Part shown: positions 21,391 to 47,011 of the stretch, piece by piece | How positions within the stretch are numbered: the first letter of the stretch is position 1 | Layout of the letters: every line of letters begins with the position of its first letter | DNA from: an uncultured Solirubrobacterales bacterium | GTDB taxonomy: Bacteria; Actinomycetota; Thermoleophilia; Solirubrobacterales; Solirubrobacteraceae | Reading direction: 5' to 3' | DNA length: 64,000 nucleotides | Assembly (NCBI GenBank): GCA_963702875.1 | Contig: OY969768.1 | Location: 875,876-939,875, forward strand | Made by a program: the position numbers and the translations under genes | Notes under the pieces: generated by a model | Databases searched by the model: none | The model's input: the letters and a program-made list of their open reading frames with translations, nothing else | Told to the model about the DNA's origin: nothing

Positions 21391-21476
21391 GCGCCTGTGG
21401 CGGAATTGGTAGACGCGCAAGGTTGAGGGCCTTGTGGACTGAATGGTCCGTGGAGGTTCGAGTCCTCTCGGGCGCA
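21391..21476 (+). tRNA. tRNA-Leu (anticodon GAG), long variable arm, CCA not encoded
   Basis: GCGCCTG acceptor pairs with CGGGCGC; D-arm GGCGGAATTGGTAGACGC; anticodon stem CAAGG/CCTTG with loop TTGAGGG; T-arm GGAGGTTCGAGTCCTCT. Confidence 0.9.
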
Positions 21477-21480
21477 CTGG

Positions 21481-21504
21481 GAAAGCCCCGCTAGCGGGGC
21501 TTTC
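21481..21504 (+). terminator. Hairpin immediately after tRNA-Leu
   Basis: GAAAGCCCCGC-TA-GCGGGGCTTTC followed by TTCGG. Confidence 0.55.
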
Positions 21505-22254
21505 TTCGGTCCAAGCGGTTCAGGTCTGAGGAAGCGGCATGCGCCTATGACGAGACAACGGACCCAGGTCTTGGCCCGCCCTTGATGTCCGCCGGCGCGG
21601 TGGGCGTTGTTCGGCGGCATGCCGAGCTCGGCTCGCTCCAACTGTCCTGCCGCCCGCACCACTGTCGACGGGTGGTCGAGCTTCGGATACTCCTGCTCTT
21701 CGCTGGCTTAGCGGCAGTCCGCGACAACCGCGCGCCTGTCTCCGGGCAGACTCGGCAGTCCGGGTGCCAAAACGCTGCTGCTGCGGCTTTGATGGCGCGA
21801 CGAGCATCCCGCCTACACGACGGTCTCGGGCACTCCGAGGACGCCCGGCGTAACGAGCGGCCGCTGGTCTCGAGCGATCTTCTCGCTGGAAGGACCGTTC
21901 GGGCGGATCAACCGATGTGGACGATGCCCGGCGGGGCGGCGTTCGACGGTGGGCGCGCGTAGACAGGCTCCTGAGCAATACAGCGAGTCGCCACCAGCGA
22001 GGTGCGCCAATGACCGGAGCAGTGAAACTGAGCGATGGAACCGAACTGGTCGTGGAGGCGACCTAGCCGAGTGCGAGGGCATGCTTCAAAGAGCCACCAA
22101 GTACGGCTCCTTGCTCGAGATCGAGTACCCCGACGACGGTCACATCATCGCGGTCACTCCTCAGGGGGTTCAGTAGTTCGTGGAGGATCAGACGGGCTAG
22201 GTCCGACCTTCGGCTCGACGCTGTGGACAGGCGGGCTCGGGCGCCGTGAGCCGG

Positions 22255-22659
22255 TCAGCGGAAGGCATCCGCGAGCTCGATGCCGGCGGAACGGGTGCCG
22301 CGGCGAACGCGCTGATCGAACGACGCGACGCTGGCGTGGTGGGCACGCGCCGTTGCCAGCGCGAACCCGTCGGCGAGACTGATGTTCAATCCGCGCAGAC
22401 GCGCGGCGTCCCGGGCAATCGCAGGCGTCGGAGCGCTCAGCTGGATGCCGAGCGCGTCGATCGCTGCGACGGCGGCGCGCAGCGTTGACCCGTTCTCGGC
22501 GGGCCGCACGAGCGTCTCGGCGTAGTTGATCATCGACAGTAGGAGAGCGACTTCCTCTGCGAGCATGCTGCGGATTGCCCGCGCCGCTCTCTGGTGGTGT
22601 GCGTCGGCGCGATCAAGTGCAGCTATGACGACGTCCGTGTCGAGGACGCAGACTCTCAC
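22255..22659 (-). CDS. vapC: PIN-domain toxin
   Basis: MRVCVLDTDVVIAAL..., acidic residues in a PIN-like arrangement, 134 aa. Overlaps the antitoxin gene by 4 nt. Confidence 0.75.
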   Translation of the reverse strand: MRVCVLDTDVVIAALDRADAHHQRAARAIRSMLAEEVALLLSMINYAETLVRPAENGSTLRAAVAAIDALGIQLSAPTPAIARDAARLRGLNISLADGFALATARAHHASVASFDQRVRRGTRSAGIELADAFR

Positions 22660-22874
22660 GTTCGCTCTTCGCGACGCAGGTTTTCCAGGTAGTCCGGTTC
22701 GAATAGCCCATCGAACAGCCCGAGGGCCTTGTCGAGGTTGTGACTGGCGCGGCGCACGACAATCGTGTCCGGTCCCTGAGCTTCGATCGTCACCTCGTCC
22801 CCGGCCCTGAGGCCCGCGCTGGCCAGGCTGTCAACCGGAAGCGTGATCTGGTGCTTGCTGGAAATCCGCGGCAT
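22656..22874 (-). CDS. vapB: AbrB/SpoVT-type antitoxin
   Basis: MPRISSKHQITLPVDSLASAGLRAGDEVTIEA (SpoVT/AbrB swapped-hairpin signature); 72 aa. Confidence 0.7.
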   Translation of the reverse strand: MPRISSKHQITLPVDSLASAGLRAGDEVTIEAQGPDTIVVRRASHNLDKALGLFDGLFEPDYLENLRREERT

Positions 22875-22875
22875 T

Positions 22876-22895
22876 CCTTTACCATATCGTAAAGG
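22876..22895. promoter_or_regulatory. Palindrome abutting the vapB start; candidate autoregulatory operator
   Basis: CCTTTAC-CATATC-GTAAAGG, 2 nt upstream of the vapB ATG. Confidence 0.4.
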
Positions 22896-23406
22896 CATCT
22901 GGGGATTCGCGATCAGATCGCCGCCTGGAAGGAGCGACCAGCGGCCTGTTCCAGCGGCTGGTGCTCGAGCTTCTAGAGATCGACGGTCGCTAGGACGTCG
23001 GTTCTGTCGGGTCGTTCTCGGCTGTCTCCACTTGCGCGGCTCCGCGATTGACGCCTCCCGGACCACCGCCGGCTGGCTTGCGGCCGCTTCGAAATCAGAA
23101 GCAACTGGCGCGGGCGGCCACGGCCCCACCCGCAAACGTGACCTCAGCGCAGCGCCTAACGAAAGTCCTCGCTCCGCTCGCCAAGCGGACGATCCTTCGC
23201 GCGACTCGGCCCGCTGGTCCCGGCGCGTCCGCCACCGAGGTCGGGACCACCCAGATCGCGCCGGTCGCGATCGCCGTGCTCACCGCCTACCTCGCGCCCC
23301 AAGCGCCTTGGGGTCGGGGGGACTTGGGGAGGCAGCGAAAGCTCGGGGGTGGTCTCATCCTTTTTGGCCGATGTGCGTGCGTCGCGCTGCGGCATAGCCT
23401 GTTGCC

Positions 23407-45670: not shown

Positions 45671-46034
45671 GGCTGCTGAGCGGCAGCTCATCGAGCCCCG
45701 CTCGCGACAACTCCACCATTCGACGCGGACGATTAATCGGATCTGGCGACGCATGCGGCTCAGGACGCGACAGCCGGCCCGCTGCTTTCGTCCGGGGCCG
45801 CCACGGTTTTGTGGGTAGGGATGCCCCCGTTATCACCCGGTTTGGGGTATGAAGAGAGCCAGTGGGCGGTCTAGGCTCGCGGTCTGCAGAAACGAACGTG
45901 TCGCTCGGCAGCCCGCTGCCGGAAGAGGACCACGTTGGGCGGTCGCTGTAGCGCCGCATTGCGTAATCGCGCGTGAGTCCTAGCTCGACGGTGGCAACCG
46001 AACTAACGACAAACCACAGCGACTGGAGCGTGCG

Positions 46035-46250
46035 ATGGAGCTGGAACTCAAAGAGAGGAGCACGATGTCGCGCGAGGACGCCGCCGCGCGCCTTCGTGCA
46101 ATCGCAGACGAACTCGCGTCCGGCAACGACATCATCCTTGAGCGAGGTCAGGCCCGGTTCGTCGCGAAGGTACCCGACGAGGTTGCACTGAAGATTGAGT
46201 TCGAGGTGGAGGACGACAAAACCGAGTTCGAGATCGAGTTGACCTGGTAA
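46035..46250 (+). CDS. Amphi-Trp-domain small protein
   Basis: ...MSREDAAARLRAIADELASG...KIEFEVEDDKTEFEIELTW, ending in Trp as is typical for this family. Confidence 0.55.
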   Translation: MELELKERSTMSREDAAARLRAIADELASGNDIILERGQARFVAKVPDEVALKIEFEVEDDKTEFEIELTW

Positions 46251-46394
46251 AGCACGCGGCGCAGTTGCGCCGACCCCTTCGGGATTGCGCGTCTGAGCTC
46301 TCAGTTCTGCTGTTGAGCGAGGGCACATCCCACGCCCGTCGCGTGTCGGTCACGGGAGCTGGGCACGGGGTCCAAGCGGAGATTCCGAGCCGGC

Positions 46395-46898
46395 ATGAAC
46401 CAGCATCTGAAGCGATTCATTCTGGGCGACCGGGATAGGATCTCCGGGACCGTCTACGGGACGATCATCGTGATGTCGGTCCTCGCGGCCGGGGCGAACG
46501 CATACGAACACCACCTGTGGCGGCTGGTTGTCCTGGCGGGCGGGAGCGTGGTCGTGCTGTGGCTCGCGCACGTCTACTCGCACGCCCTTGGGGAGAGCCT
46601 CAGGATCGGACGTCGCGCCACAATCACCGAGCTCTCGTCGCTCGCCCGTCGCGAGTACTCGGTTGTCGGCGCCGCGATTCTCCCGTTGGCCGCCGTTGGG
46701 GGAGGCGCTGCAGGGGTGCTGGCCGAACGAACCGCAGTCCAACTAGCGCTCTGGCTCGGCGTGGTCACGCTCACCGCTCAGGGAATCCGATACGCGCAGT
46801 TGGAGCGCCTCAGTCGCAGCGCTACCGTCGTCACGGTCACGCTGAATCTTGCGATCGGCTTGGCGATCATCGCCCTGGAAGTTCTGGTCGCGCACTAG
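46395..46898 (+). CDS. Hypothetical membrane protein
   Basis: 167 aa with 4-5 hydrophobic helices. Confidence 0.5.
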   Translation: MNQHLKRFILGDRDRISGTVYGTIIVMSVLAAGANAYEHHLWRLVVLAGGSVVVLWLAHVYSHALGESLRIGRRATITELSSLARREYSVVGAAILPLAAVGGGAAGVLAERTAVQLALWLGVVTLTAQGIRYAQLERLSRSATVVTVTLNLAIGLAIIALEVLVAH

Positions 46899-46922
46899 AT
46901 CAGCCTGCGGCTCTTGCCACTG

Positions 46923-46978
46923 GGGTGAGGGCGTTGTGGACGGTATGGTCCATGGAAGTTCGAGTCTTCTCGGGCGCA
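46923..46978 (+). pseudogene. 3-prime fragment of a tRNA-Leu gene (anticodon loop to acceptor end)
   Basis: 49/56 nt identical to 21421..21476 in my hand alignment. The T-arm is intact with a compensatory pair change. No D-arm or 5-prime acceptor strand lies upstream. Confidence 0.7.
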
Positions 46979-46983
46979 CTTCA

Positions 46984-47011
46984 GAAAGCCCCGCACAGAC
47001 AGCGGGGCTTC
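46984..47011 (+). terminator. Hairpin after the tRNA fragment, related to the one after the intact tRNA
   Basis: GAAAGCCCCGC-ACAGACA-GCGGGGCTTC followed by TTCC. Confidence 0.5.

Follow-up and report, generated by a model that had tools for sequence, protein, structure and literature searches.

Genomic islands that target transfer RNA (tRNA) genes have an attachment (att) site, attP, that carries part of the tRNA, beginning with the anticodon loop and reaching past the acceptor end to include the terminator. On integration the tRNA gene is split, the copy supplied by the element restores it, and the old 3' part of the gene is moved to the far end of the insert. Here, we describe a 64-kb stretch of DNA (called the window; about 67% GC) from a member of the Solirubrobacterales, in which an intact tRNA-Leu(GAG) gene and a displaced copy of its 3' part bracket about 25.5 kb. 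We read the bracketed DNA as a composite, decayed island at tRNA-Leu that is now fixed and immobile, and we give this reading a probability of about 0.6. The evidence supports the two tRNA-derived sequences as att-type scars of integrase-mediated insertion, and no working recombinase is left. The reading starts from features that are seen directly in the DNA, namely the repeat, the hairpins that follow it, an integrase stump, a P'-arm motif and a family of elements in related genomes.

Two described systems are relevant to this locus. A tRNA gene and a displaced fragment of it mark the ends of islands, att sites centered on the anticodon are common, and tandem arrays of islands occur (PMC4383910). 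In actinomycete elements, the segment of att identity overlaps the 3' end of a tRNA gene, tandem integration leaves a short att site between the elements, and decayed remnants are present as well (PMC2440964). The window has an intact tRNA gene and, on the same replicon and in direct orientation, a cognate 3' fragment that begins in the anticodon loop, as in the islands of the first study, which follow the Islander definition.

The tRNA-Leu Gene and Its Displaced 3' Part

The tRNA-Leu(GAG) gene is the sole tRNA that ARAGORN calls in the window. A repeat finder pairs positions 21421-21478 with 46923-46980 on the same strand, about 25.5 kb apart, and the two segments are identical at 51 of 58 nt (88%). 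This agrees with an earlier note on this DNA, which was made from the sequence alone and reported a 56-nt partial copy with 49 matching positions. The displaced copy starts at tRNA position 31, in the anticodon loop, which is a canonical crossover sublocation. The intact gene is an attL-type junction, with the repeated core extending from tRNA position 31 onward.

A profile of tRNA 3' copies finds the displaced copy in the window with E=1.6e-21, and the same search finds no third copy in the 64 kb. Likewise, a 21-nt pattern from the T arm and acceptor, with up to three mismatches allowed, matches only at the tRNA and the displaced copy, versus 0 matches expected. Neither ARAGORN nor Rfam calls a tRNA at the displaced copy, and the D-arm and the 5' acceptor strand are absent before it, as the earlier note had stated. 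That note also described hairpins after both copies, and folding supports both of them with z-scores of about -4.3 (Table 1). A strict terminator scan calls neither hairpin, the loop being 2 nt and the T-run shortened. Among the relatives (80 loci around lexA homologues with 77-95% identity, taken from species-representative Solirubrobacterales genomes), the same hairpin follows the tRNA and is then followed by TTTTTT; the T-run in the window was cut short by a deletion.

Two of the differences between the displaced copy and the tRNA, a G>A and a C>T in the T stem, were described previously as compensatory, and they do still base-pair in the copy. In seven relatives the working tRNA-Leu has the resulting sequence, GGAAGTTCGAGTCTTC, as its T arm; the A-T allele of the displaced copy is a functional one elsewhere, and this pair of changes is not drift in place. 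A direct comparison of the copy with a tRNA that combines the GGAAGTTCGAGTCTTC arm with the variable arm of L029 and L045 leaves about four further differences, two of which are in the anticodon stem-loop, a region that is invariant in the functional tRNAs of the relatives.

Integrative Elements at tRNA-Leu in Related Genomes

The closest LexA matches are 95% identical and come from uncultured Solirubrobacterales genomes. The block of lexA, the RNase P RNA gene and tRNA-Leu is syntenic in the relatives, and DNA homology between them and the window ends at about 21503-21518, just past the tRNA hairpin. In 16 of the 80 relatives, genes of one integrase family (Pfam Phage_integrase and Phage_int_SAM_3) are located directly 3' of tRNA-Leu and point in the same direction; the gene is intact in eight of these loci, frameshifted in six and reduced to a tiny stump in two. 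Extra, partial copies of tRNA-Leu, one or two per locus, are present in nine relatives at 1 to 8.4 kb downstream of the gene and on its strand. Each of these displaced copies begins at tRNA position 28-31, at the 5' boundary of the anticodon loop, as does the one in the window, and most of them run through the terminator hairpin.

For example, in L028 the tRNA gene is followed by an intact 463-aa integrase gene in a 7.6-kb insert that ends in a 71-nt copy, 100% identical to the tRNA, and the N-terminal stump of an older integrase lies beyond this copy. Another relative, L035, has three tRNA-Leu copies. In L028 and L037, the inserts also hold an excisionase-like gene (HTH_17) and cargo of the PIN or Fic type, together with a NikA/MobC mobilization gene in L037, and they are small integrative elements that are probably mobilizable. 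The tRNA-Leu(GAG) gene is a recurrent target of one tyrosine-integrase family in the Solirubrobacterales.

These relatives bear on several claims of the earlier note. It had interpreted the direct tRNA 3' repeats as att scars, and this is borne out by the relatives, which carry both intact integrases and copies with the same left boundary, and by the integrase stump kept in the window (see below). It had also considered a divergence of roughly 13%, and homology that extends into the terminator, to be unusual for an att duplication. Neither is unusual in this family: the displaced copies of the relatives range from 100% down to 84% identity, the A-T pair in the T stem is a functional allele, and homology into the terminator is typical (e.g., L005, L028, L037, L040 and L041).

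Element Remnants in the Window

A hidden Markov model of the integrase family, run against the six-frame translation of all 64 kb, has its best match at 21504-21557 on the + strand, right after the tRNA hairpin. The matching peptide, LRSKRFRSEEAACAYDET, corresponds to profile positions 23-40 of 424. The stump is also matched by tblastn with the L037 integrase (E=0.007), and 45 nt of its DNA are 84% identical to the corresponding codons of L044. In L044 the same codons are about 190 nt further from the tRNA; therefore, the window has lost the P' arm and all of the integrase beyond about codon 40. Six-frame Pfam scans of both junction regions (21478-22260 and 46979-47535), a check that had been proposed earlier, show no recombinase. 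Thus, the earlier statement that the segment has no integrase is right in the sense that no usable gene is present, but an 18-codon stump persists.

The second remnant is a P'-arm motif located after the hairpin of the displaced copy, and motifs of this type lie equally far beyond the terminator in L005, L014, L025, L028 and others. A blastn match to the attR region of L028 reaches 47045. A free local alignment of the post-terminator region with the relatives scores 14 against a shuffle mean of 11.5, which is not significant alone, and the weight is on the register-fixed 15-nt motif rather than on the free alignment. A second match to the motif, at 45781-45795 with two mismatches, was inspected and judged to be due to chance. 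Because P'-arm DNA follows the displaced copy, an element would already have been present when that 3' end was displaced, which implies that at least two integration events are recorded here and not one.

Several relatives have remnants of their own. In L040, integrase codons ~1-23 occur right after the displaced copy (~8600-8560, reverse strand) and are frameshifted, and in L070 a second integrase stump (9435-9530) lies between the tRNA and the intact integrase; these stumps point to repeated insertion and decay at tRNA-Leu. The contigs of L001 and L002, which have the closest LexA (95%), end inside or just after the tRNA-Leu gene, a hint that the assembler stopped at a repeated tRNA 3' part and that islands are present there too. 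Finally, L044, L037, L048 and L016 have conserved palindromic repeats, GTGGGTATTGTTGCCACGTGGCAACAACCCACA and GTGGGTAC, in the P' arm before the integrase, ~150-230 nt past the tRNA start. They are probably arm-type binding sites or operators, and the stretch that holds them is the one deleted in the window.

Comparison with Described Systems

In addition to the intact tRNA and the direct 3' fragment, the resemblance to Islander-type islands (PMC4383910) includes the relatives with an integrase beside the tRNA and the tandem arrays in L028 and L035. However, the window has only the 18-codon stump; no tyrosine integrase gene is present inside the interval, as judged from the interior open reading frames (ORFs) and the six-frame junction scans, so the window would fail the Islander integrase filter. 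It differs as well in a right end without a P arm and in a 25.5-kb accessory interior without mobility functions. With one fragment, one stump and one P' motif, the window records two events but is not a formal tandem array; L028 and L035 are nearer to one.

With the actinomycete elements (PMC2440964), the locus and its relatives share an actinobacterial host, a tyrosine integrase, an att site that overlaps the tRNA 3' end, and tandem and remnant forms. Unlike the actinomycete integrative and conjugative elements, neither the window nor the elements of the relatives that were examined have Rep, Tra (FtsK-like), Nudix or Kor genes. In particular, RepSA, RepAM or Prim-Pol together with an FtsK/SpoIIIE-like Tra beside int/xis was found neither among the Pfam matches of the window interior nor in L028 or L037, and without these replication and transfer modules the locus does not belong to that group. 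The elements in the relatives are also smaller, and with NikA/MobC they seem to be of a mobilizable, not a conjugative, type.

Integrative mobilizable elements are a third group to consider. The relatives share with them the integrase, HTH_17, a NikA/MobC-like gene and PIN/Fic cargo (integrase and HTH_17 in L028 and L037, NikA/MobC in L037), and the window keeps vapBC beside the integrase stump. The window, however, has lost every mobility function, and membership in this group can be claimed for its ancestor only.

A Composite Island as the Favored Explanation

The order of events that we infer, with the interior arriving as cargo, would be as follows. One tyrosine-integrase family would target the anticodon loop of tRNA-Leu(GAG) across the Solirubrobacterales, and an older element of this family would have left its P' arm directly after the then-current tRNA 3' end. 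One or more later insertions, with an integrase of the L037/L044 type, would have moved this 3' end to 46.9 kb together with its terminator and the P' arm. During decay, the integrase would have been deleted save for 18 codons, and the arm regions, any excisionase or mobilization genes and the P arm of the right end would have been deleted also. The interior would have gained pseudogenes and a 690-bp duplication. The cargo would be the conserved gene neighborhood described below, which includes an ion channel, a 167-aa protein, an MFS protein, LuxR regulators, GCS2/GATase, SulP and DUF2252/HD proteins.

We favor a composite island because a direct tRNA fragment downstream of a hot-spot tRNA gene is the expected product of integration and because the interior genes recur at tRNA-Leu elsewhere, with an identity well below that of core genes. 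Moreover, the strongest rival needs an off-target event to have fallen by chance 25 kb downstream and in direct orientation.

Several observations weigh against a composite island. The 80 loci include neither an empty site, with tRNA-Leu running directly into the 47-kb flank, nor another copy of the 25 kb; almost every one of the ~70 species has different DNA beyond the tRNA, which limits this comparison. At 25.5 kb, the interval is three times as long as the largest element of the family that has been resolved (these span 1 to 8.4 kb). The interior neighborhood occurs without tRNA brackets in many genomes, where its GC content at third codon positions (GC3) is similarly lowered (0.74-0.88), and the Pfam matches of the interior ORFs include no replication, transfer, phage or recombinase genes. 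At the right-hand junction, homology between the window and the relatives downstream of the 167-aa gene extends to 46910-46918, which is 4 nt before the displaced copy, and the P-arm motif CCCCTGGAAGCATCTACRC, which precedes the displaced copies of the relatives, is absent from the window. Therefore, the left side of the right copy is not an element P arm, and an extra deletion must be assumed.

A plain attR should carry the P arm of the element at this position, so either a deletion removed it or the junction arose in some other way. The former is plausible, since the left end of the core is similar to the native sequence that follows the 167-aa gene. Sequence was also lost at the left junction, by a deletion that abuts the terminator.

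The earlier note described the segment as a decayed or non-autonomous integrative element. The att scars and the decay support this description; however, there would have been at least two events, and the 25.5 kb may not be a single element throughout.

Additional searches were made for free forms of the element and for data from the same species. An exact-protein look-up found no identical LexA or SfLAP protein on record. Pieces of the region were present in four soil metagenome runs at a depth of 2-3 only, and one 245-nt contig spans 46770-47014; these reads gave no information on a junction. The tRNA 3' pattern was in no viral contig that was searched. No plasmid similar to the interior was found, and no integrase from a plasmid exceeds 29% identity to that of L028.

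Other Explanations for the Displaced Copy

The strongest rival, which we consider unlikely, is that the window has two independent scars and no single bracket, so that ~27-46.9 kb would be mostly resident chromosome. One element at tRNA-Leu would have decayed and lost its far-end copy, and a second element of the same family would have inserted off-target where the terminator region of the 167-aa gene offers a look-alike site. The attP of the second element would have planted the tRNA 3' part, the terminator and the P' arm at 46.9 kb, and the element itself would have been located at 47-50 kb. This would account for the junction at 46.9 kb, which reads native flank, core, terminator and P' motif and thus looks like an off-target attL, and it does so without an extra deletion. 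The sequence that follows the 167-aa gene in the relatives, CTGGGTGGAGAGAGTTCTG, shares 12 of 19 positions with the tRNA anticodon stem-loop and 14 of 19 with the window junction, in a register that was chosen post hoc. The DNA to the right is accessory-looking, with a Tn3 relic and a gene of the SfLAP family that, apart from the window's own, has no homologue above 57% identity, and the interior is a conserved neighborhood that is unbracketed elsewhere. However, a rare off-target event would have to fall coincidentally 25 kb downstream and in direct orientation, two far-end copies must have been lost, and neither the far junction of an off-target insertion nor the native-flank continuation, GAGAGTTCNGCATCGG, was found in the window. 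None of the 86 loci that carry the 167-aa gene has a tRNA-Leu fragment. In addition, the interior genes found at tRNA-Leu in other species have 54-59% identity, compared to 85-90% for LexA, which fits cargo better than a resident flank.

Another possibility, which we regard as quite improbable, is the integration in a single step of one circular molecule carrying the whole neighborhood. A small element would first have inserted between the 167-aa and ion-channel genes on a circle or an excised segment, and the circle would then have recombined with tRNA-Leu through the ~90-nt tRNA-like core, either by the integrase or by homologous recombination. Two genes that are normally neighbors would thereby have ended at opposite ends of the insert. 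The ion-channel gene is indeed within 1.5 kb of the 167-aa gene in nine of the 28 loci that have both flanks, and in the window the bracket has one of the two genes near each end, both on the same strand, as expected from a circular permutation. On a circle, only the module of att, integrase stump and vapBC (~2.4 kb) would separate them, and the native flank abutting the core would be accounted for. However, the closest relatives (at least 82% identity) show the pair side by side in only one of five contexts. The gene order of the neighborhood is shuffled between genomes, so the pattern may be due to chance, more steps are needed than for a composite island, and no such circle or plasmid was found.

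Considered together, the two versions, in which the right copy is a tRNA 3' half planted off-target by the 167-aa gene or the neighborhood moved as one circle by way of that planted copy, amount to a minority possibility that we judge doubtful but somewhat better than either one alone. If either one is true, a tRNA-specific integrase carried a tRNA fragment to a non-tRNA site, and an island call based on fragments would wrongly enclose resident genes.

Finally, the suggestion that the copy is unrelated to integration, being either what is left of a second, duplicated tRNA-Leu gene or part of a dispersed family of tRNA-derived repeats (the latter is a case that the earlier note named as contrary to its own view), would fit a T-stem allele that is functional elsewhere and so was once part of a working tRNA, but it is largely refuted and highly improbable since only two copies are present in 64 kb, copies in the 80 relatives occur only downstream of tRNA-Leu on the same strand and never on the lexA side, the left boundary is the same as that of nine integrase-associated displaced copies, and a P'-arm motif follows the copy.

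Genes inside the Bracket

The features of the window are listed in Table 1.

Table 1. Coordinates of the tRNA-derived sequences, element remnants and genes discussed in the text (positions in the window).
Feature	Position	Strand	Evidence
RNase P RNA (class A), conserved left flank	19857-20193	-	Rfam RF00010, 238 bits; syntenic in relatives
lexA, left-flank anchor	20505-21116	-	Pfam LexA_DNA_bind and Peptidase_S24; used to fetch the 80 loci
tRNA-Leu(GAG), intact	21391-21477	+	ARAGORN; Rfam tRNA model 21391-21476, 51 bits; identical or near-identical in relatives
Terminator-like hairpin GAAAGCCCCGC/GCGGGGCTTTC 3' of tRNA	21481-21504	+	-22.6 kcal/mol, z -4.3
Tyrosine integrase stump, ~18 codons, peptide LRSKRFRSEEAACAYDET	~21504-21560	+	Family hidden Markov model; tblastn; 45 nt 84% identical to L044 codons
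vapC-like PIN toxin gene	22255-22659	-	Pfam PIN, E=3e-11
ORF with C-terminal MazE/AbrB-type antitoxin domain	22656-23135	-	Pfam MazE_antitoxin, E=1e-4, 22.6 bits, below cut-off 24.7
Ion-channel gene (23903-24616), short ORF, 361-aa gene (25086-26171)	23903-26171	+	Pfam Ion_trans_2
DUF2252 gene	27033-28565	-	Pfam DUF2252, E=3.5e-147
Perfect 690-bp direct repeat, left copy	30040-30729		Exact extension; Pfam DUF1269 gene
Na+/H+ exchanger C-terminal fragment	36756-37229	-	Pfam profile positions 271-374 of 375 only
Perfect 690-bp direct repeat, right copy	38778-39467		Exact extension
SulP sulfate permease pseudogene	43912-45754	-	Frameshift near 44990-45078
167-aa gene, no Pfam family, last before displaced copy	46395-46898	+	358 homologues, best 94% identical
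Displaced tRNA-Leu 3' part, anticodon loop to acceptor end, A-T T-stem allele	46923-46980	+	
Hairpin GAAAGCCCCGC...GCGGGGCTTC after displaced copy	46984-47011	+	-18.4 kcal/mol, z -4.2
P'-arm motif GTTGCTTCCGCCCGG	47031-47045	+	1 mismatch to consensus; after hairpin of displaced copy
Tn3-family transposase relic, 35 aa	~47215-47319	+	Pfam DDE_Tnp_Tn3, 23.6 bits vs. cut-off 24, E=2.6e-5

Most of what the earlier note had listed in the interior is present. A predicted vapBC pair is located next to the tRNA: the PIN toxin gene is preceded by a small antitoxin ORF that overlaps it by 4 nt and matches its Pfam profile just below the cut-off, and the real start of the antitoxin ORF is probably internal. 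The perfect 690-bp repeat pair was confirmed, the sulP gene is frameshifted, and the two HD genes both match HD_4. Of the three gene fragments that had been counted, only the C-terminal piece of the Na+/H+ exchanger gene was identified (its homologue in L023 is 415 aa).

The SulP pseudogene has its N-terminal half in one frame and its C-terminal half plus the STAS domain in another, and the two frames overlap. Intact SulP orthologues of 583-584 aa, which are 90-96% identical, are directly beside the 167-aa gene in L085 and L086, and therefore the SulP gene in the window is broken. About 660 nt of the window (45748-46406) are absent from L085 and L086, where the two genes adjoin, and a 71-aa ORF with an Amphi-Trp domain lies within this stretch at 46035-46250.

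Each copy of the 690-bp repeat holds a DUF1269 membrane-protein gene, and the ~8 kb between the copies has LuxR-AAA, LuxR, MFS and HD_4 genes, the Na+/H+ exchanger fragment and a 159-aa gene. In a region that is otherwise old and decaying, such perfect identity suggests a recent event, whether a duplication, gene conversion or a single-crossover insertion; alternatively, it may be an assembly artifact. The 3' part of the ion-channel ORF has five tandem 24-nt units, GCGGACGCACCAAYCGACCCACGG, at 24431-24550, which the repeat finder gave as 48-nt copies that overlap; translated, the units would form an 8-aa repeat.

Some of the interior genes are near tRNA-Leu in other genomes. The ion-channel and 361-aa genes have homologues inside the tRNA-Leu bracket of L041 with 54-57% amino acid identity. 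Orthologues of the DUF2252 gene, with 81-85% amino acid identity, are close to tRNA-Leu in L017 and L040; in L040 the gene is ~1 kb beyond an L044-type integrase stump.

The 167-aa gene is recurrently linked to homologues of the interior genes, including those for the ion channel, the MFS protein (34310-35983), GATase/GCS2 (41415-42296), LuxR-AAA (30879-33425), the 159-aa protein (37761-38240), the Na+/H+ exchanger, SulP and DUF2252. The linkage to the first five of these is kept even in distant homologues with 39-46% identity (L155, L156 and L158), and the genes look like a conserved, uncharacterized functional neighborhood. In L081, the reverse transcriptase of a group II intron (RVT_1, GIIM) is encoded, along with an HTH_17 protein, a few kb downstream of the 167-aa gene (15593-18778), another sign that this gene is often at the edge of mobile DNA.

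The earlier note considered the bracketed DNA to be accessory-like and proposed a check of its composition. GC3 is 0.79 inside the bracket compared to 0.90 in the left flank (p=3e-6), and the tetranucleotide distance is raised from ~20 to 50 kb. The shift is therefore there, but the lowered GC3 of the same neighborhood in the relatives means that it is no proof of import, and composition was rejected as evidence of a foreign origin. The interior is a widely conserved accessory gene neighborhood, with pseudogenes and a perfect 690-bp duplication, and not a recognizable element.

The Right Flank

The DNA to the right of the displaced copy looks degraded as well. The Tn3-transposase relic that had been noted just outside the right copy is weakly supported, by a match just under the Pfam cut-off. 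An IS110-family transposase gene (DEDD_Tnp_IS110 and Transposase_20) is present at 56292-57377, 9 kb to the right of the displaced copy, and a distant homologue of it is just upstream of the 167-aa gene in L087 and L088. The Na+/H+ exchanger gene at 51569-52504 matches its Pfam profile only from position 80 and may be truncated at the 5' end; it is followed by ~1.8 kb (52500-54300) without a convincing ORF.

Conclusions

The mechanism described here is a textbook one: islands with tyrosine integrases insert at tRNA genes, also in tandem, and then decay. The element family has not been described before, although its kind is known, and we found no literature on such elements in Solirubrobacter or the Solirubrobacterales. 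For annotation, the region from 21.5 to 47 kb should be entered as a plasticity zone or decayed island, and the 46.9-kb copy as a tRNA fragment, not a gene. More generally, a displaced tRNA fragment alone is no proof that all of the DNA it encloses is one element.

The family consists of small integrative elements, with att sites that extend from the anticodon loop to the terminator of tRNA-Leu(GAG), distributed across the mostly uncultured Solirubrobacterales, and a full decay series, from an intact element to a bare scar, is visible in these bacteria.

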